The notes: a model not told the origin generated them from the letters alone. A stretch of DNA of 64,000 nt from Candidatus Binatia bacterium (GCA_035544215.1 DATKHY010000003.1:697878-761877); one strand, 5' to 3'. Shown: positions 14,696 through 45,634, counted from the first letter of the stretch. Program-made: numbers and translations.

Positions 14696-14759
14696 CAGCG
14701 TTGGAGCGTTACAAGATGAGAAAGTCATACATTACGACCGCTATAAAAGGGGATTCATC

Positions 14760-15551: not shown

Positions 15552-15626
15552 AGCGACACAGCGATAACATTCTTTGTTACGAATACGCTGCACTTCCTCA
15601 ACCTTAAGAATAGGAATCACAACATC

Positions 15627-16250: not shown

Positions 16251-16259
16251 CGCGGAGCG

Positions 16260-16556
16260 TCAAAACGTATATGGAACCGTGTTGCTCGCGGCGCTGGCGT
16301 TGTCGCCCTGCAGCAGCACGCCCACTTGGACCGTTTGCCCTTGCTTATAAATGGCGCCCGCGCCATTCACCGCGGGAATGACAAAGACGATTTGATTCTC
16401 CTTCCACGATACGAGTGCGGCGACACCGTCGTCGAGTTCAGCCACATCGGTTATACTTCCGATAAGATTGGCCCGACGCGGTTTTATCGCTATAAGCCCA
16501 GCTGATTCGCCGGGGGCAATCAGCTCGCCGTTCCAGCTAGCTGTCGGATTCGTCAT
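16260..16556 (-). CDS. Hypothetical small beta-rich protein
   Basis: 98-aa ORF, 23 nt downstream of, and co-directional with, the 592-aa repeat protein. No known domain. Confidence 0.5.
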   Translation of the reverse strand: MTNPTASWNGELIAPGESAGLIAIKPRRANLIGSITDVAELDDGVAALVSWKENQIVFVIPAVNGAGAIYKQGQTVQVGVLLQGDNASAASNTVPYTF

Positions 16557-16579
16557 TTTGCGCCGAGTGTCTAACCGCG

Positions 16580-26868: not shown

Positions 26869-27882
26869 GTGAATACGACCCCTTTAGTGAAATACGCCGG
26901 TGCTCTGTTTGCGCTTGGGATTTGCTCGGCATGCGTCAGCTCAGCGGGGGCACCGTCAACCGCTGCGCTCAACGTACGATACGTCGGTAAGACGCTCTGG
27001 CTGAACGGAAGGCCTGTAACTGCGGCGCGGGTGAATCTGAACCCCGCGCCCCGTTACGCGACGCTTTTCCCCGACCGGCGCGCCAGGTCGAAGTTTGAAT
27101 ACGTCATTAATTTCTACGGTACCTACGCCAGCATCTTCGACTACCCGAAGAGCACGAAGCAGATCGGTACGATCAATAACGTCGGCGGCCAAGGCTGCAC
27201 CAACGTCCTCTACGGCTATGGGAGGCAGACTTTTTGGATCGTGGCGGGCCAAAACCAGATCACGCAGTACCAGGTCCCCCAGACGCCGATCAAGACGCTC
27301 GATGCGCCCGCCGGGAGTATGCCGTCTAGCTGCGCCATGAATGCCGCCGGCGACCTTGCCGTCGGGATCTTGAACGGCACCGACGAGGGCGACGTCGTAA
27401 TCTATAACCACGCGAGCGGCTCGGGCAAGGTTTACACCACGCCGATGGACGAAGAATTCTTCGACGGCTACGACAACCAGGGGAATCTCTTTGCCGACGG
27501 CTTCACCGGCTTCCGCTCGGGCTTCGCGCTCACCGTACTCCCGAAGGGTGGCAACAAGTTCCTGTTGGTCACAACGAGCAACGCTGTGGGGTTCCCCGGC
27601 TCCGTGGAGTGGGACGGCACGTACCTCACCGTCTTCGATCAGAATGCAAACGCGGTCTATCAATACTCGGTCAGCGGAACGATTGCGACGTTGAAGGGCA
27701 CGGTATCCCTCAAGGGTTCCAGCGACTGCGGCCAGACCTGGATCGTCAAAGGCCTCATCTACTGCGGGGATGCGGGTAACAACGGCGGCGAGGTTTTCAA
27801 GTACCCAGCCGGCGGTTCACCGATCGCCGTCTTTACGGGCAACTTCGACACCCCACTCGGAATGGTGGCAGCAGCAAAATAA
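26869..27882 (+). CDS. P1-family lipoprotein, tandem copy B1
   Basis: 337 aa, GTG start preceded by GGAGTAACGTT. Signal ends in a CSAC motif. P1 motifs: IFDYPKSTKQIG, SSCAMNAAGDLAVG, YDNQGNLFADG, LPKGGNKF, VEWDGTYLTV, FKYPAGGSPIAVF. Confidence 0.85.
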   Translation: MNTTPLVKYAGALFALGICSACVSSAGAPSTAALNVRYVGKTLWLNGRPVTAARVNLNPAPRYATLFPDRRARSKFEYVINFYGTYASIFDYPKSTKQIGTINNVGGQGCTNVLYGYGRQTFWIVAGQNQITQYQVPQTPIKTLDAPAGSMPSSCAMNAAGDLAVGILNGTDEGDVVIYNHASGSGKVYTTPMDEEFFDGYDNQGNLFADGFTGFRSGFALTVLPKGGNKFLLVTTSNAVGFPGSVEWDGTYLTVFDQNANAVYQYSVSGTIATLKGTVSLKGSSDCGQTWIVKGLIYCGDAGNNGGEVFKYPAGGSPIAVFTGNFDTPLGMVAAAK

Positions 27883-27886
27883 CGCT

Positions 27887-28867
27887 GTGAATACGTCCGG
27901 TTTAGTAAAACGCGCCGGTGCTCCGTTTGCACTTGCTCTGTGTTCGGCGTGCGGCGCCCCGCAGCCAGCCGCTGCGCTCAATGCAGGATACGTCGCGGTA
28001 ACGGCCGCGCGGGTGAATCTGAATCCGCTGCCCCGTTACGCGACGACTGTTCCCGAGCTACGTGCGAAGGGGACCTTTGAGTACGTCATCAACTTCTATG
28101 GGACCTACGCCGGCATCTTCGACTACCCGAAGAGCACGAAGCAGATCGGTACGATCAATAACGTCGGGGGCCAGGGCTGCACGAACGTCCTCTACGGCTA
28201 TGGACGGAAGACCTTCTGGATCGTGGCGGGCGTCAACCAGATCACGGAGTACGAGATTCCCCAGAAGCCGATCAAGACGCTCGAGGCGCCCGCCGGCAGT
28301 ATGCCGTCAAGCTGCGCTATGAATTTCGCCGGAGACCTGGCCGTTGGGATCTTGAACTACACGGACGCAGGCGACGTCGTGATCTACAAACACGCGAGCG
28401 GCTCCGGCACCGTTTTCCCCACACCGCTGGCCAAAGAGTTCTTCGACGGCTACGACAACCAAGGAAATCTCTTTGCCGACGGCTCTAACCGCATCCGTTC
28501 GGGCGCCTTCGAGCTCGTTGAACTCCCGAAGGGCAGCAGTAAGTTCGAAACGATCGCAACGAGCAACGTTGTGGGGTTCCCTGGCTCCGTGCAGTGGGAC
28601 GGCAAATACCTCACGATCCTCTCTCAGAGCCAGAACTCGATCTATCGGTACACGGTCAGCGGAGCGAAGGCGGCGTTGAAGGACACCGTTATGCTGCGGG
28701 GTGCCGCCGATTGCGCGCAGACCTGGATCGTCAAGGGCCTCGTCTACTGTGCGGATGCGGGTAACAATATTGGCGCGGTTTACAAGTATCCGGCCGGCGG
28801 TTCACCGATTGCCGTCTTTACGGGCAATTTCGACAGCCCGCTCGGCGTGGTAGCAGCAGCGAAATAA
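27887..28867 (+). CDS. P1-family lipoprotein, tandem copy B2
   Basis: The in-frame GTG at 27887 (VNTSGLVKRAG...CSACGAP) lies 4 nt after the B1 stop. A 53-nt run is identical to B1 (28115-28167 vs 27133-27185). It lacks about 8 aa (RYVGKTLWLNGRP region) relative to B1/B3/B4. Confidence 0.85.
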   Translation: MNTSGLVKRAGAPFALALCSACGAPQPAAALNAGYVAVTAARVNLNPLPRYATTVPELRAKGTFEYVINFYGTYAGIFDYPKSTKQIGTINNVGGQGCTNVLYGYGRKTFWIVAGVNQITEYEIPQKPIKTLEAPAGSMPSSCAMNFAGDLAVGILNYTDAGDVVIYKHASGSGTVFPTPLAKEFFDGYDNQGNLFADGSNRIRSGAFELVELPKGSSKFETIATSNVVGFPGSVQWDGKYLTILSQSQNSIYRYTVSGAKAALKDTVMLRGAADCAQTWIVKGLVYCADAGNNIGAVYKYPAGGSPIAVFTGNFDSPLGVVAAAK

Positions 28868-28895
28868 TCTGGATTTATCGCTAAGGAGTAACGTT

Positions 28896-29918
28896 GTGAA
28901 TAGGACTGATCTATTGAAATACGCCGGTGCTCTAGTTGCACTAGCGCTATGTTCGGCATGCGGAGGCGCCCTTCGGCAGGCTCAGGGTGACATGGCCCCG
29001 TCAACCGCAGCGCTCAATGCACGGTACATTGGTAGAACGCTCTTCGTGAACGGAACGCCGGTAACGGCCGCGCGGGTGAATCTGAATCCGCTGCCCCGTT
29101 ACGCGACGCTTTTCCCTGACCTGCAAGCGAAGTCGAAGTTTGAGTATGTCATCAACTTCTACGGTACGTACGCCAGCATCTTCGACTACCCCAAGAGCAC
29201 GAAACAGATCGGTACGATCAATAACGTCGGCGGACAAGGGTGCACGAACGTCCTCTGGGGTTATGGGAAGAGGACCTTCTGGATCGTCGCGGGAGCTCAA
29301 CAGATCTCGTTGTACCTGGTCCCCCAGAAGCTTCTCCGGACGCTCTCCGTGCCCACCGGTATGCCATCGAGCTGTGCCATGAATTTCGCCGGCGACCTTG
29401 CGGTTGGGATCTTGAACTACACCAACGCGGGCGACGTCGTGATCTTCAAGCACGCGGGCGGCGCGGGCACCTATTATCCCACGCAGTTGACCAGAGAGTA
29501 CTTCGACGGCTACGACAACAAGGGGAATCTCTTCGCCGACGGTTTTAGGAGTAGTGGGTTCGGGCTCGTCGAGCTTCCGAAGGGCAGCAGCAAGTTCCAA
29601 CTGATCACAACGAGCAACAGAGTGGGGTTCCCCGGCTCCGTGCAGTGGGACGGCAAGTACCTCACCGTCCTCGATCAGTACGGGAACTCGATCTATCAAT
29701 ATACCGTCAGCGGAACGAGGGCGACGCTGAAGGGCACCGTGTCGCTCAAGGGTGCCGGTGATTGCGCGCAGACCTGGATCGTTAAGGGGCTCGTGTATTG
29801 CGGGGATGCAACTGACAACAATGGCTCGGTCTACAGGTACCCCGCCGGCGGTTCGCCGATTGCCGTCTTTACGGGCAATTTCGACACCCCGCTCGGCGTG
29901 GTGGCAGCGGAGAAATAA
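28896..29918 (+). CDS. P1-family lipoprotein, tandem copy B3
   Basis: 340 aa, GTG preceded by AAGGAGTAACGTT. The architecture matches B1, with an extra GGALRQAQGDM segment after the CSAC motif. Confidence 0.85.
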   Translation: MNRTDLLKYAGALVALALCSACGGALRQAQGDMAPSTAALNARYIGRTLFVNGTPVTAARVNLNPLPRYATLFPDLQAKSKFEYVINFYGTYASIFDYPKSTKQIGTINNVGGQGCTNVLWGYGKRTFWIVAGAQQISLYLVPQKLLRTLSVPTGMPSSCAMNFAGDLAVGILNYTNAGDVVIFKHAGGAGTYYPTQLTREYFDGYDNKGNLFADGFRSSGFGLVELPKGSSKFQLITTSNRVGFPGSVQWDGKYLTVLDQYGNSIYQYTVSGTRATLKGTVSLKGAGDCAQTWIVKGLVYCGDATDNNGSVYRYPAGGSPIAVFTGNFDTPLGVVAAEK

Positions 29919-29922
29919 CGGC

Positions 29923-31083
29923 CTATTGCTCCAGTTCTTGCAGCGTGTTCGTCTTCGTATCGGTATAGAATAGGGCCGTATCGCTATCGCTCGTGCCGGT
30001 CGCAACGAGTCCGAAGATGTGAGCAGTCGGGCTCGTGTCGATTGTCTTTGTGTCAAGAATCTTTCCCGTCGGTGTTAGCTCCACCAGCGTGTTTCCGCCT
30101 TTCGTATTCGCAACGATGAGGTTTCCGTTCGGTAGGAGAGCAGAAGCTACGGGTGCATCCAGCGGAGAGCCACTATAGACGAGCTTCGCGCACGTGTGCT
30201 TTGGGTGAAGGCATCTGAATCTCTTACCACCGGGTTGCACGACGATCTCGTCCTTCTCAAGTAGTTGGCTGGCGGTCGAAACGGCGACGATCGTGTTGTC
30301 GACCCCGTCCACGATATAAAGCGTGTCGTTGCAAAGAGTACCGATTCTAGTGCTATTGTATTGAATTCCGGATGGGCCCAAGACACTCCATCCGGAGCCC
30401 TTATTGACGCCGAAACCGGTTATCACTTGGGTCACTTTCGCGTGGCCGGAGCGACTGACGGGGATGAACGCCAATTTAATAATTGAGCCGGTCTTGGAAT
30501 CTGCAATGTAGATGTCCTCAGGCGCGTAGGGAAGACCGCAGAATGCATCGGCGTCGTCGAACGGAACCTGGATGGGAGAGCCATAAGTTTTCTTCAGCGC
30601 GCCGGTTGGATCGAACTTCGAAACGCGACCGCTGCTCAGCCCCGCGCCGTATACGTAATTTGTCGCGGTGGTGGCGTCACTGTCGCAGCCCTCAATCTTA
30701 CGACTTTGGGCAAAAGTCCTTAGCGTGGAGTGCGGGCGTGGATCGAGTACTTCGATCGTCGTACCTTTCCCGGCGGTGCCCGCAGCGTCGTCGAAGTTGC
30801 AAACGACCAGCTGCCCTTTCTTGAGCCCAAAGGTCGATCGGGCGACCGAAATCGCGCGGGGGCCCATGTCGCCGTTCTTCGGATCGACCGTCGAGCCGAT
30901 TCTCACGTCCTTAGTAAGTTTTTTCAGAATCGACGTGTTGTCGTCTGGAATGATGGAACTCGCGCCTAGCGCGGAGACTTGCGACGTGTCGGAGACCGGA
31001 ACTGTTGTGTTTCCTCCACACGCCGAAGTTGCAAACAGCGCTCCCGCGGTTAGGATAAGTGCGCGATTGTTAAAAGTTGGCAT
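29923..31083 (-). CDS. NHL/beta-propeller-like lipoprotein
   Basis: Trimmed to ATG 31083 (MPTFNNRALILTAGALFATSACGG; AGGAG upstream). NHL-like blades are present, e.g. ALLPNGNLIVANTKGGNTLVELTPTG. It interrupts the B1-B4 array on the opposite strand. Confidence 0.75.
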   Translation of the reverse strand: MPTFNNRALILTAGALFATSACGGNTTVPVSDTSQVSALGASSIIPDDNTSILKKLTKDVRIGSTVDPKNGDMGPRAISVARSTFGLKKGQLVVCNFDDAAGTAGKGTTIEVLDPRPHSTLRTFAQSRKIEGCDSDATTATNYVYGAGLSSGRVSKFDPTGALKKTYGSPIQVPFDDADAFCGLPYAPEDIYIADSKTGSIIKLAFIPVSRSGHAKVTQVITGFGVNKGSGWSVLGPSGIQYNSTRIGTLCNDTLYIVDGVDNTIVAVSTASQLLEKDEIVVQPGGKRFRCLHPKHTCAKLVYSGSPLDAPVASALLPNGNLIVANTKGGNTLVELTPTGKILDTKTIDTSPTAHIFGLVATGTSDSDTALFYTDTKTNTLQELEQ

Positions 31084-31251
31084 CCCAAAAAGCTCGCTCC
31101 TAAGACAGTGCTGACGATGCGGGCTTCGAAGTGCCTCTTTCGTCGCCTGCAAGAGCGAGCGACCGCACGCTCTAGTCGCCCAGGCATCAGCGAACACTAC
31201 CCAAAAGCAATCCCAAAGCACGGAAAAGGTCTTCTTCCAGGGAGTAACGCC

Positions 31252-32262
31252 ATGAATACGCCCGGTTTAGTAAAATGCGCCGGCGCTCTGCTTGCACTCG
31301 CGATGTGCTCGGCGTGCTGGAGCTCGGCAGGCGCGCCGTCAGCCGCTGCGCTCAGCGCACGATACGTCGGTAGGACGCTCTTCGTGAATGGAAAGCCCGT
31401 AACCGCAGCGCGCGTGAATCTGAGCCCGTTGCGCCGTTCCGCGACAACTGTTCCTGACCGGGATTTGGACTCGAGGACCTTTGAGTACGTTATCAACGAT
31501 TACGGTACCTACGCCGGCATCTTCAAATATCCGAACAGCGATAAGGAAATCGGTAAGATCACTAACGTCGGTGGCCAAGGCTGCACGAACGTCCTCTACG
31601 GCTACGGGAAGAAGATTTTCTGGATCGTCGCGGCCTTTAACCAGATCACGGAATACACCATCCTCAAGAAGCCGCTCAAGACGCTCTCCGATTCCGTCGG
31701 TATGCCATCCAGCTGCGCCATGAATACCAGCGGCGACCTTGCCGTCGGGATCTTGAATGGCAGCGGCGCGGGCGACGTCGTGATCTACAAGAACGCGAGC
31801 GGCTCGGGCACCGTTTACACCACGCCCTTGGCCAGCGAGTTCTTCGACGGCTACGACAGCCAGGGGAATCTCTTCGCCGACGGCTTTTCCAGTGCCAGTG
31901 GCTTCAGGCTCGTCGAGCTCCCGAAGGGCGGCACTAAATTCCAAACGATCGCCACAAGCAACAGCGTGCAGTTCCCAGGCTCCGTGCAGTGGGACGGCAA
32001 GTACGTCACAGTCCTCGATCAGCTATCCAACGCGATCTACCAGTACACCATCAGCGGAACGAACGCAACGTTGCAGGGCACGGTATCGTTCCAGGGCTCC
32101 AGCGACTGCGCGCAGAGCTGGAACGTTAAGAACCTCGTCTACTGCGGGGATGCGGGGACCAACGACGGCGAGGTTTTCAAGTACCCCGCCGGCGGTTCAC
32201 CCGTTGCGACCTTTACCGGCGGTTTCGACCTACCGCTCGGCGTGGTGGCAGTAGAGAGATAA
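31252..32262 (+). CDS. P1-family lipoprotein, tandem copy B4
   Basis: ORF track gives 31108..32262; ATG 31252 gives MNTPGLVKCAGALLALAMCSAC. Same motif set as B1-B3 (SSCAMNTSGDLAVG, YDSQGNLFADG, ELPKGGTKF, VQWDGKYVTV, FKYPAGGSPVATF). Confidence 0.85.
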   Translation: MNTPGLVKCAGALLALAMCSACWSSAGAPSAAALSARYVGRTLFVNGKPVTAARVNLSPLRRSATTVPDRDLDSRTFEYVINDYGTYAGIFKYPNSDKEIGKITNVGGQGCTNVLYGYGKKIFWIVAAFNQITEYTILKKPLKTLSDSVGMPSSCAMNTSGDLAVGILNGSGAGDVVIYKNASGSGTVYTTPLASEFFDGYDSQGNLFADGFSSASGFRLVELPKGGTKFQTIATSNSVQFPGSVQWDGKYVTVLDQLSNAIYQYTISGTNATLQGTVSFQGSSDCAQSWNVKNLVYCGDAGTNDGEVFKYPAGGSPVATFTGGFDLPLGVVAVER

Positions 32263-32325
32263 CTTTTCACGGCGGTTAACGTGCACCGCTAGCGCAAAGC
32301 AACTCAACGCCGAAGACCTCCTGCG

Positions 32326-33273
32326 CTACCAACTGATAACGACGAGGCCGTTTGTGGTCGCGTTTTTCCAGCCTTGCCAACTCTGGAAGCGCGTGGCACT
32401 TGGCTCGATGTAGGACGAACCTCCGCCGCCGCCACCACCGCCGTAGCCGTATGTGTAAAAACCCCCAGTGCCGCCGCCGCCCCCACCGCCGCCGTAATAA
32501 CCACCGCCGCCGCCGCCACCAGTGCCACCGACGGGCTTGCAAAACTTTCCCTTCTGACAGCCTTTCCCGCCGCCGCCACCGCGGCCGACCGAGCCGTTAG
32601 CCCCCGGCCGCGGGTAAGTTGAGCTTCCGGCGATACCACCTTGTCCGCCACTCTCTTGCGTGCCACCCCCGCCTCCCACACCCCACTCGCCGGGGCAGCA
32701 TCGCGGATCTCCGGCAGCGCCTATGCTGCCCCCGCCCTTTCCGCCCGCGCCCCAGTAGCTTCCAAATGCTTCGCCACCTTGGCCGCCGCCGCCGCCGGCA
32801 ACGACAATGCGATCCGTCAACCGATCGCCGCCTTCGCGAATATCGGACGCGCCCCCACCACCAAATCCGTCGTTATATCCGTGGCGGTTCATGCCGGCGT
32901 GCGCGCCGCCGTTGAATCCGCCCGCGGCCCCGGACGGCTGCCCACCGACGAAGACTGCCAGCGTCTCGTCGGGCGTAACCGGGATAATCGCAAAGACGCG
33001 ACCGCCGGTGGCGAAGACCGTACTGCTGCGATCGCCATGGCCTCCCGCGGCGCCGCGAACGACGACTTCAATCTTCGTCACGGAAACCGGTACTCTAAAA
33101 TCCTGCTCCTTGCCAGTGTAGTTAAACGTGCGGTTACGCGGATACGTAGCCGGGCTAATCGCACGGCTTTCCGGCATTGCGCCTGGAGCAGCGATAGGTG
33201 GTTGCGACCCGCAGCCTGCGAGCAATGCAGCTGCCGCGCCGATTGTAAGCGCGTTGCGACCCAGTGTCCCCAT
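32326..33273 (-). CDS. Glycine-rich lipoprotein (Gly_rich / ALK-type glycine-rich domain-like)
   Basis: Trimmed to ATG 33273: MGTLGRNALTIGAAAALLAGCGS. Then FNYTGKEQDFRVPVSVTKIEVVVRGAAGG...GGRVFAIIPVTPDETLAVFVGG...GGGGASDIREGGDRLTDRIVVAGGGGG, followed by poly-Gly and the tail SSYIEPSATRFQSWQGWKNATTNGLVVISW. Confidence 0.75.
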   Translation of the reverse strand: MGTLGRNALTIGAAAALLAGCGSQPPIAAPGAMPESRAISPATYPRNRTFNYTGKEQDFRVPVSVTKIEVVVRGAAGGHGDRSSTVFATGGRVFAIIPVTPDETLAVFVGGQPSGAAGGFNGGAHAGMNRHGYNDGFGGGGASDIREGGDRLTDRIVVAGGGGGQGGEAFGSYWGAGGKGGGSIGAAGDPRCCPGEWGVGGGGGTQESGGQGGIAGSSTYPRPGANGSVGRGGGGGKGCQKGKFCKPVGGTGGGGGGGYYGGGGGGGGTGGFYTYGYGGGGGGGGSSYIEPSATRFQSWQGWKNATTNGLVVISW

Positions 33274-35995: not shown

Positions 35996-36976
35996 CTAAT
36001 GCTTCGACGCGAGACTCGCCGTGACACCCTGGGCACCCTGCTCGTTGTATAGGCTAAACACCGCACCACCGCCCTCGGGGTAGTCGTAGAAGAGCACTCC
36101 ATACTGAGAATTCGTTAGGACGAGCTGATTCGCTCGTTTGACCGATTTTGGGCCGCCGATCCGGCCGAGCCAAAACGCTCCGCCACTCTGCCCGGACCTT
36201 TCCGTGAGCATGTAGCCTTCTTCGATGCCTCGCGTTCCGTGGATGGTATACCATTCGAAAATGCTAGGATACTGGTAATACGGCACGTCGAACTCCACGA
36301 CGAAGTATTCACCGTCCCAGCGAACGTAGCCGGGGCGCGTCCATTGGGAGCTGTGTGGCAGCGTTACACTTTTGAAAGCGCTCCCCCCATGCCGCAGGAT
36401 CGCGAAGCTGAGCATCGACGACTCCTCTCCGCTGATGAGAAGATTTCCGCTCGCGTCGTAACTGCCCGAACTGTACGCTGAGAAGCCCTTTTCCGCATAA
36501 ATCTTCGGCCTCACTTTGCCCTTCACGTACACTGCGACGTCTCCGGGGCCGGACTCGTTAATGACAGCAAGGTCGCCGGTAACCGGGTCAACGGAGCAAT
36601 CGATCGGATTCGGGTTCGGATCGATAAACGTTTTGACCGGCGCCGATCCGCCGTGCGCGAACTCCAGAATGTCGGCCGCCCCGTTATTCGTTACGTAGAC
36701 GTTGCCCTGGGGATCGGTGCACGATCCGGCGGCGTGCGAAAAATAGTTGAGCGTACCAACCTGCGTGTTGCTTCCGTAATCGTAGACGTCCACCGCGCTG
36801 TACGCCGACACGTAGAGGAGGTTTTTGCCCACGTTCGGCGTCAGGGACGACGCGAGCGCAACGCTGGAGTGCGGAACCGACGGCACGGACTGCGACGGAG
36901 CCTGCAAGCCTGCGCAGCCGGCCACAATACCGCAGGCGCAGGCAGCCAGTGCAAAGCGTAGGAGAGTCCCGTACAT
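35996..36976 (-). CDS. P1-family lipoprotein, copy A1
   Basis: Lipobox GIVAGCAG. Motifs: GSCTDPQGNVYVT, LEFAHGGSAPV, CSVDPVTGDLAVIN, YDASGNLLISG, VRWDGEYFVV, FYDYPEGGGAV. Confidence 0.8.
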   Translation of the reverse strand: MYGTLLRFALAACACGIVAGCAGLQAPSQSVPSVPHSSVALASSLTPNVGKNLLYVSAYSAVDVYDYGSNTQVGTLNYFSHAAGSCTDPQGNVYVTNNGAADILEFAHGGSAPVKTFIDPNPNPIDCSVDPVTGDLAVINESGPGDVAVYVKGKVRPKIYAEKGFSAYSSGSYDASGNLLISGEESSMLSFAILRHGGSAFKSVTLPHSSQWTRPGYVRWDGEYFVVEFDVPYYQYPSIFEWYTIHGTRGIEEGYMLTERSGQSGGAFWLGRIGGPKSVKRANQLVLTNSQYGVLFYDYPEGGGAVFSLYNEQGAQGVTASLASKH

Positions 36977-36990
36977 CGTCGTGCGATTCC

Positions 36991-37998
36991 TTAGTGCGCC
37001 ACGCTGATGGCGACGCCCTGGAAGTTGCTGCCGTCAGGGGCTTGAATCGCCTTGAAGGCCTTACCGCCGGCCGGATATGGCCAGAAGTACAGCTGGCGTG
37101 TCGGTCCGCCGTTGCCGGCGTCGGGTCCCACGATGAACTTCGCTTGTATTGCGAACTCGACGTCGAGGTACGTTCCCTCATCGTGGTAAGTGCGCAGGCT
37201 GGTGGTACCGACGATCCGCGCTCCGGATCCCGAGACGGTCACGCGGTCCACGCGCACCGGCCCCTTCGCACCTCCCAGAACCGTTACGGCTAGATCTCGC
37301 GCGTTCCACTGCAAGCTACCTGGAGCAATGTTCTTGTTGAAGTAGACGTGTCTCAACGCGCTACCGTTTCGTGGCAGCTCGTTGATGAAGTTCGCGTTGC
37401 CGTCGGCGAAGATGTTTCCCTTGCCGTCATACGTACAGTAGTAGTAGTGCGTTATGCTCGAGTCATAGTAGTCCTGAGGTGATCCTTGCGCGTGTTGGTA
37501 AACGGCGATGTCGCCTTGGCCGCCCACTGCGAAATCCTCATAGTTGGCGATCGCCAAATTTCCCGTCGATGGATCGACCGAACAGCCCGACGGCACGCCG
37601 GAGCCGCCGAGACCGTTGATCCCCCGAGTTGATCCGTGCGAGTATTCGTCGTAGAATGCCTGACCGTTCGTAATCCAGCCTACAACCCATACGTTACCCT
37701 GCGTGTCGGAGCAGAGCCCCTCATATGTTTCCTCCGTGTCGGGCTCGAGAAACCCCACCTGTTTGCCCTGGGGATAGGTATAAATGTAGACGCCTCCTTT
37801 GCCCCACACGCCCTGATCGGACACATAAATGAGGTCCTGGCTCGCCGCACCGGGGAGTATCCAGGAATACCCCGGCACGCGATGATGTTCCGCGACGGAA
37901 CTGACGAATGACGTAGAGAACGGCGCGGCGGGCTGCGGATTTCCGCACGCGGCCAGCGATGCTCCCGCCGAGAGGGCGAGCCAAGCGCGTCTATTCAT
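36991..37998 (-). CDS. P1-family lipoprotein, copy A2
   Basis: Lipobox SLAACG. Motifs: GLCSDTQGNVWVV, GCSVDPSTGNLAIAN, YDGKGNIFADG, ELPRNGSAL, LQWNARDLAV, FWPYPAGGKAF. The start overlaps the stop of A3 (ATGAATAG). Confidence 0.8.
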   Translation of the reverse strand: MNRRAWLALSAGASLAACGNPQPAAPFSTSFVSSVAEHHRVPGYSWILPGAASQDLIYVSDQGVWGKGGVYIYTYPQGKQVGFLEPDTEETYEGLCSDTQGNVWVVGWITNGQAFYDEYSHGSTRGINGLGGSGVPSGCSVDPSTGNLAIANYEDFAVGGQGDIAVYQHAQGSPQDYYDSSITHYYYCTYDGKGNIFADGNANFINELPRNGSALRHVYFNKNIAPGSLQWNARDLAVTVLGGAKGPVRVDRVTVSGSGARIVGTTSLRTYHDEGTYLDVEFAIQAKFIVGPDAGNGGPTRQLYFWPYPAGGKAFKAIQAPDGSNFQGVAISVAH

Positions 37999-38944
37999 GG
38001 ATCCTTCCGAGGCTTACGGTCACCGCAACGGGTTGCGAGATGCCCTGCGAGATCTCCGCGATGCCGTCGCCACCGGCGGGGTAGTTCCAGTATTCGACTA
38101 ATCCCTCGTATCCACCGACGACCTGCGTACCCTGCCGCTTCGAACTATTGCTGTAGATCCAGAACGGCCCGGTCTGGCCGCAACAGACTTGCAGGTTGGT
38201 GACGCCGATATAGTATCCCAGCCCTTTGATAACGCTCACGCGGTAGAGGTTCTCGTCGTCAAGGACGTAATATCGGCCGTCCCACTGTATTCCGTTGATC
38301 TCTTCCCACGGAGACCCGTACGGTCCCGGCACCGTAACGTTGAGCAGCCGGTTGCCGCCCTTGGGCAGCCACGCGAAGCTCGAATAGCGGCTGCCGAACT
38401 GACCGTTCGACGCGAGGAGGTTGCCATCGTTATCGTACGCACAGGCTTGGAACTGCGGGATCGTCTTAATCGTGAAGAATTTCGGCGATCCGCTGGCGTG
38501 GGCATATACGGCGATGTTCCCTTGACTGGAGCTGCCCGCTTCGTTCGCCACCGCAAGCGACCCGGTCGTTTCATCAACGGAGCAGGAGTAGGGAGCATAA
38601 GGCGAATCGTCGATAGTCCGTAGCGGCTTCTTTCCCGCGTGCGCATATTCGACGATTTTCTTCGCGCCGTAATCTGCGATGTAGACGTTTGCGGACTTGT
38701 CGACGCACTCGCCCATCGGTTGAGTGAAGCCCGTCAGTTCGGCAACCAGCGTCTTCTGCCAGTACGTGTATACCGTTACCTCGCCGTTTCCGTCGGAGAT
38801 ATACAGAAGGTCGAGTTTCTTTACGACGAGGTCAGGGCGGGCGCCCTCGATCTTTAGGGGTGTGGCGTTCGCCCCGGCATATTGCGCTGCGGAGCTGCAG
38901 CCGGCTGCGGCGAGCACCCCGCACAGGACGATCGATCTGATCAT
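37991..38944 (-). CDS. P1-family lipoprotein, copy A3
   Basis: Lipobox LAAAGCSS. Motifs: GECVDKSANVYIAD, VEYAHAGKKPL, CSVDETTGSLAVAN, YDNDGNLLASNG, LPKGGNRL, IQWDGRYYVL, YWNYPAGGDG. ATGA overlap with A4. Confidence 0.8.
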   Translation of the reverse strand: MIRSIVLCGVLAAAGCSSAAQYAGANATPLKIEGARPDLVVKKLDLLYISDGNGEVTVYTYWQKTLVAELTGFTQPMGECVDKSANVYIADYGAKKIVEYAHAGKKPLRTIDDSPYAPYSCSVDETTGSLAVANEAGSSSQGNIAVYAHASGSPKFFTIKTIPQFQACAYDNDGNLLASNGQFGSRYSSFAWLPKGGNRLLNVTVPGPYGSPWEEINGIQWDGRYYVLDDENLYRVSVIKGLGYYIGVTNLQVCCGQTGPFWIYSNSSKRQGTQVVGGYEGLVEYWNYPAGGDGIAEISQGISQPVAVTVSLGRIHE

Positions 38945-39936
38945 GGGGCTCCACCTCCCGTTACGACGCTGACGGCTGCACCAAAAGGTGTGGAATCATT
39001 ATGAGCATTGTGGGCGGTAGGTTTCCCCCCGCCCGGATACGGCCACACGTACGTCGCGCTTGGGACCGACCCGCAGAAATCGGAGTCCGAGCCCACCACG
39101 TGTCCCTGCCAAATGACACCTTGAATGAGATCACACAGTTGACCGCCGGTAGAATTCTCCAGCGCTATCTTCCCCTTGATTGCGGCTCCGGTCTTTGAAA
39201 CCGACAAGCGATAGATACAGCTGACGGTCTGATTGCCGCAGTTCTGGTCGCCGATCGCGAGATAGCTGGAACTCCACTGCACTAGCCCCGGGTAGTAAAT
39301 TCTTCCCCCTGAGATGGCGATGCTTTTCGCCTGCACAGCGTTGACCGGCAGCTCCGACAGCATGAACTTACCGTTGGCGTTGCGGCCGTCGAAGAACAAA
39401 TTCCCCGCGCTGTCGTACCAGCCGAAGTTATAATAGAACTGTTTGGGATTGCTGTAGATGTTCGGGACACCGGCGGCGTGGTGGTAGATGAGCACGGCAC
39501 CGGGGAGGCTTCCGGTACCCAACAAGTTCATGACGGCGAGGTTTCCAGTCTTGGGATTCCATGCGCATCCGCCGGGGTATCCGGAGGTATCGCTGAGGCG
39601 TCGCCCGATCGAACCCGAGTGTTCGACTTCGAAGATGGTCTGCGCCGTGCCGTCGGTTACCCAGACGTTGCCTTTATTGTCGGAACACTCTCCCTGTGGC
39701 TGCGTGAATCCCGTGACAATTTCGATCAGCTTCAGTGTGGGAAGCGTGTAGATGTAGACCTCCGAGGTGCCGGGATCCGAAACGAAGACCCACGCCTTAC
39801 TGGCCTTAAAGTTTGGATTTTCAACTGAACTCGAAGCCGCAAGAGTCGCGGGCTGCGACTGCAGACCGCTGCAGCCGGCAATGGTGAACATCGAAAGCGC
39901 GGCCAGCCTGTAGCACCGCGTAAAGGCAATTTTCAT
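38941..39936 (-). CDS. P1-family lipoprotein, copy A4
   Basis: Lipobox FTIAGCSG. Motifs: GECSDNKGNVWVTD, GCAWNPKTGNLAVMN, YDSAGNLFFDG, ELPVNAVQAKSI, VQWSSSYLAI, VWPYPGGGKP. It lies 4 nt downstream of the Gly-rich gene. Confidence 0.8.
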   Translation of the reverse strand: MKIAFTRCYRLAALSMFTIAGCSGLQSQPATLAASSSVENPNFKASKAWVFVSDPGTSEVYIYTLPTLKLIEIVTGFTQPQGECSDNKGNVWVTDGTAQTIFEVEHSGSIGRRLSDTSGYPGGCAWNPKTGNLAVMNLLGTGSLPGAVLIYHHAAGVPNIYSNPKQFYYNFGWYDSAGNLFFDGRNANGKFMLSELPVNAVQAKSIAISGGRIYYPGLVQWSSSYLAIGDQNCGNQTVSCIYRLSVSKTGAAIKGKIALENSTGGQLCDLIQGVIWQGHVVGSDSDFCGSVPSATYVWPYPGGGKPTAHNAHNDSTPFGAAVSVVTGGGAP

Positions 39937-39940
39937 CTCG

Positions 39941-40846
39941 TCACCAGCTTATGACGACGAGGCCGTTAGTAGTAGCGTTCTTCCAGCCTTGCCACATCAC
40001 GACTTTCGTTGCACGCGACTCGACGTAGGATGAACCTCCGCCACCGCCGCCACCACCGCCGATCGCGCTCGTGCCTACACCTCCCGCGCCGCCTCCACCG
40101 CCGCCGTAGTATCCGCCGCCGCCGCCGCCGCCGGAACCACCGTAACTACCGGCGCCGCCAGCCCCCCCGACCGCAAGACTCCCGGCCGCGCCGGGGTCGC
40201 CGTTGCCCAGCGAGCCCGAGCCGCTGCCTCCGCCGCTTCCGCCTTCCTGTTGCGTACCGCCGCCGCCGCCGCCACCACCATAATACTGAGAGCCGTCCCC
40301 ACCGACGCCGCCCGTACCGCCACTCATGCCGCCGCCCTTCCCACCGACACCGCCCGGGAAATTTTTTAACCCGCCCCCGACGCCGCCACCGCCGCCCGAT
40401 ATTATGATCCTATCGACCAGTCTTCGGCCTCGCTCGCGGACGTCGCTGGCGCCTCCACCGCCGAAACCCGAAAGTGTACCCTCGTCGCCGCCTATAGCGC
40501 CCCCGTTGAAACCGGCTGTGCGCGCCGCCCCCATGCCACCAACGTAGACATACAGCAACTCTCCCGCCTTCACTGGCACGATTGCATAGACACGACCTCC
40601 GCGCGCTACGTCGGCGGAGCCACCCCCGGCCGCGCCGCGCGCCACGACCGTGATGCTGGTCACTCCCTGCGGAACTTTGAAATTCTGTACCTTGTCGATG
40701 AAATGAAAGGTATGCGATTGCGTGACGGCAGGGTGGTCGTTTCCGAGTAGCGCCGGGACTGTTCCGGCACTCTTGCCGCATCCGGCAGCCAGCGTGGCAA
40801 CGGCAACGCCGAGAGCGCAGCGAGCGAACGAACGAAACTCCATCAT
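39941..40846 (-). CDS. Glycine-rich lipoprotein (Gly_rich-like), paralog of 32326..33273
   Basis: Trimmed to ATG 40846 (AGGAG upstream): MMEFRSFARCALGVAVATLAAGCG. Then FHFIDKVQNFKVPQGVTSITVVARGAAGG...GGASDVRERGRRLVDRIIISGGGGG, followed by poly-Gly and the tail SSYVESRATKVVMWQGWKNATTNGLVVISW. Confidence 0.75.
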   Translation of the reverse strand: MMEFRSFARCALGVAVATLAAGCGKSAGTVPALLGNDHPAVTQSHTFHFIDKVQNFKVPQGVTSITVVARGAAGGGSADVARGGRVYAIVPVKAGELLYVYVGGMGAARTAGFNGGAIGGDEGTLSGFGGGGASDVRERGRRLVDRIIISGGGGGVGGGLKNFPGGVGGKGGGMSGGTGGVGGDGSQYYGGGGGGGGTQQEGGSGGGSGSGSLGNGDPGAAGSLAVGGAGGAGSYGGSGGGGGGGYYGGGGGGAGGVGTSAIGGGGGGGGGSSYVESRATKVVMWQGWKNATTNGLVVISW

Positions 40847-40955
40847 GCCTGACTCCTGACCGGAGAACGACGGGCCAAGATGACGTTCGGCGCCGGCGCC
40901 GCATCCCATCCCGTCGGGCCGCGCATTGCGTCGCTGCTGGACTAAGCGCTACGCA

Positions 40956-41942
40956 CTAGTGAGTGACCGCGATTCCGTTTGAGAAAACGCCGGTCTGCTC
41001 ATATTCGGTCGCTTTCGTACTCGCCGTGAGCGGATAGGGCATCGAGTACACCTCTCCCCCCTCCGTAGAAACCCACAGGGTCGTCTCGCTGTTCTGCATT
41101 GCCAACTCGGCGAGATTACCGTACGAGGAGAGCGTTATCGTCAGCGACGGCGTCGTCGCTCCCGGCGGAAACACCTTGATATCGTCCGACGCAGACTCAA
41201 CGACGACGATGTTCCCGGCACTATCGACGACTAACCCTTGAGGCTGATCGATCGTCATACCCAGAAGCCGCTTGTTCGTAAGGCCCGGTCCGAACTCCGC
41301 AATCGAGCTATTAATTCCCGTCCGGCGGTATGCGACATAAAGATTGCCGCTCGCGTCAAAGGCCATTCCGTCTTCTTCTGAGCCTAATCGCACGCGCCTG
41401 ATCGGTACGTTCGTGCCTGCGTTGTACTCGACGACAAACCCTTTATTGTGGCTCTCGGCTTCGCGATCCCCAACGAAGACGTGCCCCGCTGAATCGGCCA
41501 CCGCGTATAACGGTTCGTGCAGTCTCTTCGAGAACGTCATCGACGGGCTCGAGGAGCCATACGGGTAGACGGTGACGCTGCGGTGAAACGCGTTCGCGAC
41601 GTAGAGCGTATTGTTGGCGTCGAGGCTCAATCCCCACGGGCCGTGGACGCCGTTGGAGATCGAGCCTATCTGTTTCTGATTCGGCCCCGTGAGCGGAAAG
41701 AGGTCGATGGCGCCGTAGTAGTCGTTGCCGATATACAACAGGGGCTGACTGGTGGCGAAGCGCGGGAGCGGCCTCGAGGCGCGGCGCGAGACTGCGTCGC
41801 CCGGCAAGGGCGTTGAAGCCGCATTCTCTTGCAGCTGCGGGAACGCCGTTTGCCCGCTTTGCCGCGGCCCTCCGCAACCGGCGAACGTGATCCCCATCGC
41901 GATGGTAAATATGAGGCTCAGGCGTTTAGAGATTCCAGCCAT
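40956..41942 (-). CDS. NHL-repeat beta-propeller lipoprotein
   Basis: Trimmed to ATG 41942 (MAGISKRLSLIFTIAMGITFAGCGG). Blades: GPWGLSLDANNTLYVANAFHRSVTVYPYG, LYAVADSAGHVFVGD, GMAFDASGNLYVAY, PQGLVVDSAGNIVVVES...IKVFPPG. Confidence 0.8.
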   Translation of the reverse strand: MAGISKRLSLIFTIAMGITFAGCGGPRQSGQTAFPQLQENAASTPLPGDAVSRRASRPLPRFATSQPLLYIGNDYYGAIDLFPLTGPNQKQIGSISNGVHGPWGLSLDANNTLYVANAFHRSVTVYPYGSSSPSMTFSKRLHEPLYAVADSAGHVFVGDREAESHNKGFVVEYNAGTNVPIRRVRLGSEEDGMAFDASGNLYVAYRRTGINSSIAEFGPGLTNKRLLGMTIDQPQGLVVDSAGNIVVVESASDDIKVFPPGATTPSLTITLSSYGNLAELAMQNSETTLWVSTEGGEVYSMPYPLTASTKATEYEQTGVFSNGIAVTH

Positions 41943-42063
41943 TGTCTTTCCCCCGCTAGTGAATTGTGATGCCGTTGGGTCCAGAGCGCCGTGCGAATCG
42001 AGGTTCTCATGCAACGGTTTCCTCTCATATGCGATGCTCCACACTATAACGGAGTGGAGAGAT

Positions 42064-43311
42064 CTATGGCGTGAATCGGAAGACCGTGCCGCAACATCTT
42101 TTGAGGTATTTCGTATTGCCTCCGCGAGAGGCCGTGCCGTACAGCGAGCCGTGCAGGTCCGTCAGGGCCGTCATCGGACTGTTCCCATCGCTGCCGCCTG
42201 CAAAACGATGCAACACACTCTCCGCGCCGCTCGTCGTTACGCTGTAAATCGTGCCGCAGCCGAGGTTAGTTGTCGGAAAACAGTCCGTACCGCCACCGCT
42301 GTAGGTTGTGCCGTACAGTGTGCCGTTGAGGTCGAGCAAGCCTCCCACCGGGTCTGCTCCGTCGGAGCCGCCGACAAAGCGGTACACGACTTGTTCCGCA
42401 CCGCTCGTGGTGATGCTGTAAACGGTTCCTAATCCGGAACCGCCGCTACCAGTCAATCCGTAGAGCGTTCCACTAACTGAGATCAACTCACCCTCGGGGT
42501 ACGCCCCGTCAGAGCCTCCGCCGAAGGAATACAGCACTTTGTGCTTCCCCGACATGCTTAGGCTGTAAAACGTTCCACAGCCCGCGGTGCCATTGCCACA
42601 TCCAGTTCCGGCGCCGCCCACAGTGGTCGTGCCGTACAGCATGCCGTTGATGAAGACCAACGCCTTCGGCGAGCTACCGTCGGGGCCGCTCTTGAAGCGG
42701 TACAGCACCTTCTCCTCACCGGAAGTGGTTAGGCTGTAGACGACTCCGCAGTTGCATTTCCCCCCTCCTCCTCCCGCGGTGCCGAAGAGCGTTCCGTTCA
42801 CGTTGATCAAGCGCCCTTGCGGGTGCTGTCCGTCGGAGAGGCCCTTGAAACTGTACAGGAGCGCCTCGACGCCGGCCGTCGTGATGCCGTAGACGGTTCC
42901 TCTCCGCGACGCGCCGCCTCTGGGAGTCGTTCCGTAGAGCGTGCCCTTTACGTCGGTTAGGCCAGTATCCGGTTGCGCGCCATCCCCTGCGCTGAAGGAA
43001 AACACCAGGCTGACGCGGCCCAGCGGGCTGATGCTGTACACGGTCCCGCATCCATGTGAGCATTGCCTGGTGCCCCCTTCCGACGCGGTGCCGTAGAGCG
43101 TGCCCTTGACATCGAGTAAGCGGCCCAATGGTTCTCCGCCATTGGCGTGGTCATCGAACCGGTAAAGCACCTCGTAAGACGATGTAGCGAGGTGGATGCT
43201 CTGCGTCAGCCCGCCCGGCGTAGCGCCGGTCGGCGGCTGCGCCGCTGCGCAGCCCGCAAGCAATGCCGCAGCGGCGCCGATGCTAAGCGCGTGGTAGGCC
43301 AAAGTATTCAT
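42064..43311 (-). CDS. GloVer (Gloeo_Verruco) tandem-repeat lipoprotein
   Basis: Trimmed to ATG 43311 (GGAGG upstream): MNTLAYHALSIGAAAALLAGC. There are about 8 repeats of G(T)LYGTT..GG....G(T)VY(S)....G.E.VLY.F.GG.DG..P.G.L....GTLYG. Confidence 0.8.
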   Translation of the reverse strand: MNTLAYHALSIGAAAALLAGCAAAQPPTGATPGGLTQSIHLATSSYEVLYRFDDHANGGEPLGRLLDVKGTLYGTASEGGTRQCSHGCGTVYSISPLGRVSLVFSFSAGDGAQPDTGLTDVKGTLYGTTPRGGASRRGTVYGITTAGVEALLYSFKGLSDGQHPQGRLINVNGTLFGTAGGGGGKCNCGVVYSLTTSGEEKVLYRFKSGPDGSSPKALVFINGMLYGTTTVGGAGTGCGNGTAGCGTFYSLSMSGKHKVLYSFGGGSDGAYPEGELISVSGTLYGLTGSGGSGLGTVYSITTSGAEQVVYRFVGGSDGADPVGGLLDLNGTLYGTTYSGGGTDCFPTTNLGCGTIYSVTTSGAESVLHRFAGGSDGNSPMTALTDLHGSLYGTASRGGNTKYLKRCCGTVFRFTP

Positions 43312-43454
43312 GTGCGAAGCCTCCGAGAGAGAGCTATTGCATCGTAGCATCCGGCGTTCACGGGGACAAGGCGAAGCAGACATTCGGCGGCCGCGCTGTC
43401 AGTTCTCCCTCGGCTCAGCTTCTTTCAAGGTGCACCGCCAGCGCATCGCGCTTT

Positions 43455-44566: not shown

Positions 44567-44724
44567 CGTCCTTCGACTCGCTGCGCTCGCTCAGGACTGC
44601 CAGGCACCCGCGTCCTTCGACTACGCTCGCTGCGCTCGCTTCGCTCAGGATGACATCGTCACTTGCGTCCTTCGACGGAGCCTGTCCTGAGCGAGCGAAG
44701 CCAGTCGAAGGGCTCAGGATGACA
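44567..44724 (+). repeat. REP-like interspersed repeat, cluster of three units (one containing an inverted copy)
   Basis: Units begin CGTCCTTCGAC at 44567, 44611 and 44666 and end ...GCTCAGGA(C/T)(T)GACA. The third contains the inverted segment TGTCCTGAGCGAGCGAAGCCAGTCGAAGG. The last unit supplies the final codons and stop of the sigma-factor ORF. Confidence 0.7.
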
Positions 44725-45634
44725 AAATCGGGCTGAACCTCGCATCTTTTGCGATGTAGGGTACGTAGCGGAAGTCGCGGATCTCGGAGATTTGTTCGTT
44801 TTCCGATTTGAGGAGAACGAAGTAGGCCGGAGCGTCGCTGGTTGGCGGGCGGAACATCGCGATCGCGGCAACGCCATCGACGTAGCCCGCTTGCGCGCGA
44901 ATGTCTTCGGTCCGCAGGACCTCGGCGTAGCGATCGAAGTAGCCTGCGTCGGCCACCTTGCGCTGCACGAGCGAAACCTGGTCGAGTCGCGCCTCCGCGG
45001 CCAGCAGCGCGCGAAGCGCTTTCCAGTCGTGGTGGTTGAAGAGGTCGACGTAGCGCCGCAGCGTCGCCTGCTCGTGCGCCGACGCGTGCCGCACCGGTTG
45101 TGCGAGTGCGGCGTGCAGCGTTCGAGCGATGTTCGCGCGCCCCCTCGAGAGCGCCGCCTTCACCGCACCGACGCTCGTTTCCATCGTCGTCGCGGCCTCC
45201 TCGAGCGATTGCCCGAGGACGTCTTTTAAGATGAGGGCGCTGCGCTGCACGGGCGGCAGCTCGACGAAGACCGTCAGCGCCGCTTCCACGAGCTCCGGAT
45301 CGACGCCCGCCTCCTCGGCCTCGGCGCGGTCCGGAACGTCGGAGACGAGCTCCACGTTCTTGCGTTCGTAGCGTTTGAGAAAGTCCATAGCGGTATTGTG
45401 TGCGATCCGGAAGAGCCAGGGCCGCAGGTTGGGCGGCTCCCGCATCTGGCCCAGTGCGTAATAGGCTTTTGCCAGCGTGTCTTGGACGACGTCTTCACCG
45501 TCGAAAACCGAGCCCGTCATGCGGGCGGAGTACCGATGGAGCTCGGGGCGAATCTCTTCCACGAGCTCCATGAACCGGTCGCGCGCCTCCGCCATCGCAG
45601 GCAGCAAGGCGCGCGTTTCGTCTTGCGTGGTCAC
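44714..45634 (-). CDS. ECF-type sigma-70 family sigma factor with ~110-aa C-terminal extension (SigJ/ECF41-like)
   Basis: Region 2: ELHRYSARMTGSVFDGEDVVQDTLAKAY...RPWLFRIAHNTAMDFLKR. Region 4: LPPVQRSALILKDVLGQSLEEAATTMETSVGAVKAALSRGR. A long C-terminal NTF2/SnoaL-like tail follows. No anti-sigma gene is seen. GTG start. Confidence 0.9.
   Translation of the reverse strand: MTTQDETRALLPAMAEARDRFMELVEEIRPELHRYSARMTGSVFDGEDVVQDTLAKAYYALGQMREPPNLRPWLFRIAHNTAMDFLKRYERKNVELVSDVPDRAEAEEAGVDPELVEAALTVFVELPPVQRSALILKDVLGQSLEEAATTMETSVGAVKAALSRGRANIARTLHAALAQPVRHASAHEQATLRRYVDLFNHHDWKALRALLAAEARLDQVSLVQRKVADAGYFDRYAEVLRTEDIRAQAGYVDGVAAIAMFRPPTSDAPAYFVLLKSENEQISEIRDFRYVPYIAKDARFSPILSS

Follow-up and report, generated by a model that had tools for sequence, protein, structure and literature searches.

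The DNA considered here is a stretch of 64,000 nucleotides from a Candidatus Binatia bacterium (GCA_035544215.1 DATKHY010000003.1:697878-761877), from here on called the window. Between positions 35996 and 43311 (all coordinates without a contig name are positions in the window) it carries on the minus strand seven open reading frames (ORFs), each for a putative lipoprotein. The last five, a gene for a glycine-rich (Gly-rich) protein and four genes of a family dubbed P1, are the main subject of this report. In the direction of transcription the features are:

42064-43311, minus strand: GloVer-repeat lipoprotein, 415 residues, lipobox LLAGC, TIGR03803
40956-41942, minus strand: NHL-repeat lipoprotein, 328 residues, lipobox FAGC, PF01436
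40847-40955, minus strand: leader 5' of the Gly-rich gene, 109 nucleotides, with a diverged form (GCGCCGAACGTC) of a shared leader and an AGGAG ribosome-binding site
39941-40846, minus strand: Gly-rich lipoprotein, 301 residues, lipobox AAGC, first gene of the five-gene unit
38941-39936, minus strand: P1a lipoprotein, 331 residues, lipobox IAGC, orthogroup a, predicted six-bladed NHL-like propeller
37991-38944, minus strand: P1b lipoprotein, 317 residues, lipobox AAGC, orthogroup b, predicted propeller
36991-37998, minus strand: P1c lipoprotein, 335 residues, lipobox LAAC, orthogroup c, predicted propeller
35996-36976, minus strand: P1d lipoprotein, 326 residues, lipobox VAGC, orthogroup d, predicted propeller, last gene of the unit

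All seven proteins (7/7) begin with a basic/hydrophobic signal peptide that is closed by a lipobox cysteine, as found by pattern match ([LVI..][ASTVI][GAS]C about 15-40 residues from the start), and the lipoprotein signal is also kept in the orthologs of these proteins. The five genes of interest are tightly packed: the stop of the Gly-rich gene is separated by 4 nucleotides from the start of P1a, P1a and P1b overlap by 4 nucleotides (ATGA), P1b and P1c overlap by 8 nucleotides (ATGAATAG), and P1c and P1d are 14 nucleotides apart. Just beyond P1d, at 35958, a convergent gene stops. The intergenic gaps before the NHL gene and before the Gly-rich gene are 121 and 109 nucleotides long. An initial annotation of this DNA had described eight co-directional lipoproteins, among them four packed P1 copies preceded at a distance of 4 nucleotides by the Gly-rich gene, with gaps of about 110-120 nucleotides before the NHL and the Gly-rich genes. 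The spacings were found as described, and so were the common direction and the lipobox in every gene; the number of genes is seven, however, and the word copies does not fit, since P1a-d are only 28-34% identical in pairwise comparison. Judged by this divergence they are old, distinct paralogs.

Starting from the Gly-rich protein, from P1a, from an a+b fusion (see below) and from P1c, the contigs that encode their closest relatives were retrieved, and the neighboring genes were assigned by best hit to the proteins of the window. The Gly-rich gene together with a-b-c-d recurs in 11 other independent contigs, in 5 of them complete and in 6 truncated where the contig ends (in brackets the identity to the respective protein of the window):

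L081: Gly (74%)-a (66%)-b (61%), cut by contig end
L082/83: Gly remnant-a (63%)-b (61%)-c (71%)-d (56%)-Gly
L084/85: Gly (61%)-a+b fused, 640 residues-c (57%)-d (52%)
L086: Gly-a+b fused, cut by contig end
L087/88: Gly-Gly-a+b fused, 622 residues-c (55%)-d (50%)
L091: Gly-a (62%)-b (66%)-c (61%)-d (56%)-GloVer
L098: a+b fused-Gly-c (50%)-d (54%)
L100: Gly-a-b-c-d
L099, L101, L102: b-c-d, cut at contig start

The order a-b-c-d is invariant across all these loci; the position of the Gly-rich gene varies, as it can precede a, follow d or intervene between b and c. For each protein of the unit there is a 1:1 ortholog, with a best-hit identity to the window protein of 50-76% as compared with the 28-34% between paralogs. 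Orthologs of P1a are 60-67% identical (L081, L082, L084, L086, L087, L091, L100), those of P1b, in every case located directly after a, 55-67%, and those of P1d, in every case located after c, 50-57%. Orthologs of P1c were found in nine other independent loci, always with d downstream and, in all but L098, where the Gly-rich gene intervenes, with b upstream. The P1c orthogroup was encountered solely within the five-gene module; among 1.84 billion representatives one protein is 63% identical to P1c and the next is at most 43% identical, while the P1 superfamily as a whole comprises 2651 clusters at E ≤ 1e-10. When 47 P1 proteins were placed in a maximum-likelihood tree, each of the four P1a-d proteins of the window formed a clade of its own with its positional counterparts from the other loci, with supports from 100/99 to 100/100 (a, 100/99; b and d, 100/100), the d clade being sister to the b-type clades. 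Gene tables of the orthologous loci also contain the stop/start overlaps or gaps of at most 20 nucleotides. What flanks the unit is different each time (glycoside hydrolase, PNGase, AraC, FtsK/RNase J, integrase/relaxase), and since the flanks change while the set of five stays constant, the five genes move as a unit.

From these comparisons we conclude that the Gly-rich gene and P1a-d are a conserved, co-inherited five-gene unit of Eremiobacterota, which very probably is also a functional unit. The operon of the Gly-rich gene and four P1 genes proposed in the initial annotation thereby gains strong comparative support from the 11 loci, the 1:1 orthologs, the fixed order, the kept overlaps and the fusions of a with b. 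A lack of synteny among homologs in other genomes had been named as the observation that would speak against it; the homologs are syntenic.

In L091 the unit is flanked by integrase and TraI-like relaxase genes (2364-2738 and 13922-16981), and in L082 genes of the transposase and IS605 OrfB/TnpB-like kinds are found nearby (1392-2548 and 20655-20966). The unit may thus travel on mobile elements. Contig L082 harbors, directly 5' of its P1a ortholog, a 46-residue ORF (L082:5882-6022) that has kept both ends of a Gly-rich lipoprotein, MKTPDFIRYVL… at its start and …GGGGGYYG…VWLCFSW before the stop. It looks like an internally deleted Gly-rich remnant; the intact Gly-rich gene of this contig follows P1d. 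Homologs of the Gly-rich and P1 proteins are found almost only in metagenome-assembled genomes, under the taxon names Candidatus Eremiobacteraeota, Vulcanimicrobiota, Candidatus Cybelea, Baltobacteraceae and Tumulicola.

How specific is the link between the Gly-rich and the P1 genes? Besides P1a-d the window contains five P1 genes, four at 26869-32262 that are 67-73% identical to each other and one at 20557, and a second Gly-rich gene (Gly2, 32326-33273), which brings the totals to nine P1 and two Gly-rich genes. The Gly-rich protein of the cluster and Gly2 are 41-51% identical in the N-terminal domain. A genome scan for relatives of the Gly-rich protein yielded 80 loci, 40 from Eremiobacterota and 40 from Bacteroidota, Actinomycetota and other phyla. 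Only 5 of the 44 Gly-rich genes of Eremiobacterota are followed on the same strand by a P1 start within 200 nucleotides downstream (about 8 once overlapping stop-to-stop calls are resolved manually), and equally close upstream a P1 gene was found in 5 cases, the background farther away from the Gly-rich genes being roughly 2 P1 genes per 1-kb bin. Within the fetched 20 kb around the Gly-rich genes of Eremiobacterota, GloVer genes were present in 20, P1 genes in 25 and NHL genes in 13 of the 40 loci; near the Gly-rich genes of other phyla relatives of P1, GloVer or NHL were found in none of 40. Among 73 metagenome loci centered on other P1 paralogs 9 contained a Gly-rich gene, and layouts of the type Gly-rich gene followed by two or three P1 genes recur. 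A universal pairing of Gly-rich with P1 genes was therefore rejected, adjacent P1 genes being found with a minority of the 44 and in 0/40 loci of other phyla.

The picture is a different one for the subgroup to which the Gly-rich protein of the cluster belongs. Six clusters, including that of the window, out of the 120 best Gly-rich homologs have the motif H(Y/F)(V/I)DK instead of the usual YTG, and all six are located in a-b-c-d modules. On this comparative evidence the loose co-clustering of Gly-rich, P1, GloVer and NHL genes is a trait of the phylum, and the strict association is peculiar to a single Gly-rich subclade. The initial annotation had seen an echo of the Gly-rich/P1 pairing at 31252..33273. 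The two genes there, Gly2 and the P1 gene at 31252, are convergent, as had been stated, and hence cannot be co-transcribed, so that what remains of the echo is a loose parallel.

The cluster could also have arisen by tandem duplication in a lipoprotein-rich island, in which interchangeable or variable surface proteins (antigenic, phage-receptor or decoy variation) are neighbors owing to chance and to duplication on the spot and not to a joint function. About half of the genes of the region encode lipoproteins: for the part of the window from 9 to 64 kb approximately 23 out of 46 crudely called genes have a lipoprotein-type signal; four P1 genes whose unusual C-S-A-C lipobox had escaped the pattern are counted among them. 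Since this part is so rich in lipoproteins, seven of them in a row are locally less exceptional than they appear. The nine P1 and two Gly-rich genes of the window, the frequencies of GloVer, P1 and NHL genes around Gly-rich genes, the small share of the 44 Gly-rich genes with a directly adjacent P1 gene, and the integrases, relaxases or transposases near some modules would all be in keeping with such an island. For the five-gene core, however, it is largely refuted by the orthology tree. The identity of 50-71% between orthologs in the same position, as against 28-34% between the paralogs, indicates that the duplications are old and that each copy has been under its own constraint; moreover, the order never permutes and orthologs of c occur inside the module only. 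We therefore consider an island of this kind very improbable.

Besides the tight packing, the leader in front of the Gly-rich gene fits a start of transcription at this place. The gap of 109 nucleotides contains, besides the strong AGGAG ribosome-binding site, a diverged copy (…GCGCCGAACGTC…) of a leader that can be aligned with those of Gly2, of GloVer, of the gene at 54705-55784 and of the P1 gene at 20557. The shared leader resembles promoters of the extracytoplasmic function (ECF) type (GGAAC…CGAACGT). Of its core, GCCGNNGAAYGT, the window contains 4 copies where 0.87 are expected, and none of 100 shuffled sequences reached 4. One of the copies belongs to GloVer, which has a leader of its own with the core at 43380-43391. 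In front of the Gly-rich gene the exact core GCCGNNGAAYGT is absent. Of the conserved leader announced for this gap in the initial annotation, the relationship thus stands and the exact core does not. Related motifs precede the Gly-rich genes of L084, L087, L090 and L091. In the unit no sigma-70 consensus and on the minus strand from 35996 to 40846 no terminator-like site was detected, the counts of the scan being those of shuffled sequence. Taken together, the transcription unit probably starts at the leader 5' of the Gly-rich gene, and by the arrangement of the genes it is likely that the five form one operon.

Upstream of the cluster, at a distance of 1.4 kb and on the same strand, a gene for an ECF-type sigma factor with a long C-terminal extension is located (44714-45634). 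The signal peptides of GloVer, of Gly2 and of an otherwise unrelated lipoprotein (54705-55784) are 69-75% identical over 27-29 residues (minus strand, 43311-43225, 33273-33190 and 55784-55698, respectively), and their leaders are related as well. Related signal peptides also explain why Gly-rich queries match the N-termini of P1 genes in other genomes.

GloVer and NHL have to be kept apart from the unit. Both family calls of the initial annotation were borne out, GloVer (42064-43311) scoring 180.6 bits on TIGR03803 (cut-off 44; E 3e-54) with six tandem repeats of about 50 residues, and the NHL lipoprotein (40956-41942) 37.8 bits on PF01436 (E 1.6e-9), which is above the gathering score. A GloVer gene follows d in L091, as also two P1 genes in L090; beside the five-gene unit none was found in L081, L082, L087 and L098, and an NHL gene in none of L081, L082, L087, L091 and L098. 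As members of the operon they were rejected, because they are not conserved beside the unit, and the single eight-gene cluster of the initial annotation gains no support: GloVer and NHL are not fixed parts but common neighbors in Gly-rich-anchored loci (20/40 and 13/40). We treat them as separately expressed neighbors drawn from the same pool of clustered lipoprotein families.

Natural gene fusions tie two of the P1 proteins to each other. A search with the 622-residue protein from L087 found some 40 protein clusters from many samples that are full-length a+b fusions (588-662 residues, 41-67% identical to the query). When aligned, these proteins have 10-30 linker residues between the final strand of a and the initial strand of b, in place of the signal peptide and lipobox of P1b. 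By the usual fusion argument, the recurrence of this fusion places a and b side by side in one compartment. Double and triple propeller fusions were also seen in other branches of P1, the triple ones being P0325 (922 residues) and P0281 (931 residues). In one a+b "fusion", P0273, an internal signal-peptide-like segment with lipobox is retained; this one may be a read-through or a frameshifted gene pair.

The fold of the P1 proteins was approached via orthologs of P1a and P1b, namely one of the natural fusions, from the model of which the fold of P1a is taken. The AlphaFold2 model of the fusion (predicted local distance difference test, pLDDT, 84) consists of two propellers, each of six four-stranded blades, with about 24 strands per half, and its best matches in the PDB are the tandem propellers of LRP2 and LRP6 (E 1e-18 to 1e-15). 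The P1a and P1b orthologs can accordingly be modelled as six-bladed NHL-like propellers. On PF01436 (threshold 20) P1a scored 14.6, P1b 9.8 and P1c 12.9 bits and P1d gave no hit, so that all stay below the threshold; the L087 fusion is with 20.3 bits just above it. Aligned with hhalign, the P1c profile matched the NHL lipoprotein of the window with a probability of 87% (E 4e-6), and searched against PDB sequences it found nothing significant. Other similarities are weak (PF08450, the SGL/lactonase family, E 0.0017 on the fusion; DFPase, E 0.4). The cysteines of the propellers are nearly invariant, as would suit an oxidising, extracytoplasmic location, and genes for TonB and a TonB-dependent receptor on related contigs agree with an outer membrane and a diderm envelope.

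The Gly-rich protein is of a quite different type. Gly2 scores 34 bits on PF12810 (ALK_LTK_GRD; gathering threshold 24.5), and about half of the listed Gly-rich homologs have a precomputed hit to this family. The Gly-rich protein of the cluster found no match in Pfam even at E ≤ 5 and stays below the PF12810 threshold; because of its homology to Gly2 in the N-terminal domain and because of the alignment we infer that it belongs to the PF12810 family, as a member of the H(Y/F)(V/I)DK subclade. Its AlphaFold2 model, built from an alignment of 33 sequences, reached a pLDDT of 86.6 and a predicted template modelling score (pTM) of 0.81. There are beta strands at both ends, and between them lie the Gly runs, with pLDDT values above 90 and without helix or strand in the DSSP assignment, consistent with polyglycine-II helices. 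The top 21 fold matches in the PDB (Foldseek) are all TNF-like plus glycine-rich (TG) regions or glycine-rich domains (GRD) of ALK/LTK, with a probability of 1.00 and E-values from 1.3e-6 to 3.4e-4, at template modelling (TM) scores of 0.35-0.40 and 17-23% identity. Even closer matches were found among predicted viral structures (BFVD models), 87 of them at E ≤ 1e-3 and the best with TM scores of 0.62/0.60, a root-mean-square deviation of 3.6 Å and 34% identity; many of these are phage virion, tail-fibre or "glycine-rich domain" proteins. The first PDB match outside ALK is the fibre of cyanophage Pam3. The profile of the Gly-rich protein searched against PDB sequences gave marginal ALK hits only (E approximately 0.7) and a low-complexity hit. 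On the strength of the model, a TG fold can be predicted with confidence for the Gly-rich protein.

Known natural polyglycine-II bundles include those of springtail antifreeze proteins, of the fibre adhesin of phage S16 and of the GRD of ALK (PMC12227593); gp38 of S16, a Salmonella phage, has a polyglycine-II receptor-binding domain (PMC12227593). The first of these bundles allows another view of the unit, namely as a structural or stress module of the envelope, induced via an ECF sigma factor and serving not the capture of ligands but as a tether between membrane and wall, as a surface coat or, by the flat polyglycine-II face, in protection from ice or desiccation. The polyglycine-II bundle is indeed the ice-binding fold of the springtail proteins (PMC12227593), the leader is promoter-like and of the ECF type, and the position of certain P1 triplets (described below) beside the housekeeping genes rpmG-secE-nusG in two genomes hints at a core role in the envelope. 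In structure, however, the Gly-rich protein comes closest to proteins that bind receptors or ligands (ALK/LTK, phage fibre/virion), and the unit is not universal, its contexts being variable and sometimes mobile. A structural or stress function is quite improbable.

Overall we favor, with some reserve, the reading that the unit encodes a co-translated, membrane-tethered hetero-complex with the Gly-rich protein as the likely binding part. The five genes would be transcribed from the ECF-type promoter-like leader 5' of the Gly-rich gene, and their translation, coupled via the stop/start overlaps of 4 and 8 nucleotides and the gaps of 4-14 nucleotides, would yield the five proteins in near-equal amounts. 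After export and lipidation these would be held on tethers of 20-45 residues at the membrane of the diderm envelope, where they would assemble into one hetero-oligomer. P1a would stand beside P1b, to judge from the fusions of the two in many relatives, in which P1b has lost its own anchor. The four propellers would provide a platform and the Gly-rich subunit would most likely be the part that recognizes a ligand or a surface, as the analogy with ALK/LTK and with phage fibre tips suggests.

The links of this chain differ in strength. That the five proteins form a physical complex is somewhat favored by the evidence at hand. That the complex serves in the binding or capture of an external molecule is a tentative proposal by analogy. 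A full envelope apparatus, in which four non-identical propellers form a fixed hetero-assembly carrying a TG-type polyglycine-II recognition subunit like those of phage fibre tips and of the animal receptors ALK/LTK, is doubtful.

Several observations weigh against a complex made from one transcript. The RNA folds of three intergenic regions are no more stable than those of shuffles (z from +0.5 to +1.2). A search of sequencing runs for the locus returned DNA from soil metagenomes only, with word shares of at most 0.10, and no RNA run. The sample consists of 12 loci, which were found by sequence similarity. One a ortholog (L092) is solitary, without b, c, d or an adjacent Gly-rich gene, and there is no remnant of b after it. 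P1 genes that belong to sister clades of b and a also form overlapping triplets (b'-a'-b'') without any Gly-rich gene, which indicates that a Gly-rich subunit is not required by all P1 assemblies. In the window each protein keeps its own lipid anchor and could act alone, and for the a+b fusion, in which each propeller by itself is modelled with confidence, the pTM of 0.57 leaves the orientation of the two propellers undefined, so that the model yields no a:b interface.

The last two points lead to an alternative in which the five genes are a co-regulated operon for independent products. The propellers would then be separate binding proteins or enzymes (lactonase- or lyase-like NHL/SGL) for different substrates of one pathway, the Gly-rich protein another independent exported factor, and no stable complex would be formed. 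A signal peptide and lipobox on every protein and the lack of confident packing between the propellers are what one would expect in this case. The weak similarities to SGL/lactonase and to DFPase-type propellers agree with it, as does the size of the very large and diverse P1 family (2651 clusters), which is reminiscent of substrate-binding families. Against this stands the recurrent fusion of a with b with loss of the anchor of b and linkers down to about 12 residues, which implies a close cooperation. An order a-b-c-d that is invariant over about 50% divergence, together with the kept translational coupling, is typical of the subunits of complexes, and no match to a Pfam enzyme family exceeded its threshold. 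Independent products are therefore unlikely, and the hetero-complex remains the reading that we prefer.

The P1 triplets merit a listing of their own. In each of the following the three P1 genes overlap:

L091:3221-6218, minus strand: b'-a'-b''
L093:6970-10057: b'-a'-b''
L095:6934-9937: b'-a'-b''
L096:6988-9928: b'-a'-b''

Contig L091 holds both a triplet and the five-gene unit. In L093 and L095 the triplet adjoins rpmG-secE-nusG-rplK-rplA. Within a few kb of P1 arrays there is also a gene for a PF04185 phosphoesterase (phospholipase C / acid phosphatase family):

L093:10464-11702: PF04185 phosphoesterase
L095:12755-14149: PF04185 phosphoesterase
L096:759-2042: PF04185 phosphoesterase

The Eremiobacterota (WPS-2), which occur in large numbers in soils and peat and are nearly all uncultured, have genomes full of lipoprotein families that the databases leave unnamed. 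Among these the five-gene unit is a discrete, testable set of co-travelling orthogroups, and the natural fusion of P1a with P1b predicts which two of the components touch. Should the five proteins indeed assemble into a complex, this would be an envelope assembly of a new type and an entry point to the biology of bacterial TG domains; if not, the locus still is a clean case of conserved gene order for the annotation of the phylum. An apparatus of propellers and a TG subunit, if it exists, would give the bacterial PF12810 domain its first functional context, and the TG fold may then have begun as a microbial surface-recognition module working with beta-propellers. The component folds are already known; the P1 family is without a Pfam model. 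A search of the literature found no paper on lipoproteins or lipoprotein systems of Eremiobacterota, on PF12810 proteins of bacteria or on the five-gene unit. To our knowledge the TG fold, a rare one, is known only from the ligand-binding region of ALK/LTK and from receptor-binding proteins of phages, and the bacterial PF12810 proteins have no assigned function.

Assemblies of several lipoproteins encoded in operons are exemplified by the accessory lipoproteins of the Bam complex, including the propeller BamB, and by the Sus-like surface complexes of Bacteroidota. With these the five-gene unit has in common that several lipoproteins, propellers among them, are co-encoded with tight gene spacing, the assembly itself being in our case predicted from the genes. 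It differs in that the unit contains no integral membrane partner such as BamA or a SusC-like TonB-dependent transporter, and none of its families is related to the proteins of Bam or Sus. Phage fibre and virion proteins are overall the best structural matches of the Gly-rich protein; they are parts of virions, often much longer and fused to fibre shafts, whereas the Gly-rich protein is a chromosomally encoded lipoprotein that occurs with propellers, in a cluster of the window without phage genes. The TG region of ALK/LTK (PDB 7N00, 7NX1, 7LS0) has, like the Gly-rich protein, terminal beta strands that enclose long Gly runs, but the latter is a small bacterial lipoprotein without kinase, EGF or MAM modules, and its genomic partners are beta-propellers rather than helical cytokines. 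From the six-bladed NHL- or YWTD-type propellers of LRP6/LRP2 and of bacterial NHL sensors or lipoproteins, finally, the P1 proteins are set apart as lipid-anchored single propellers that come as a fixed set of four different paralogs.

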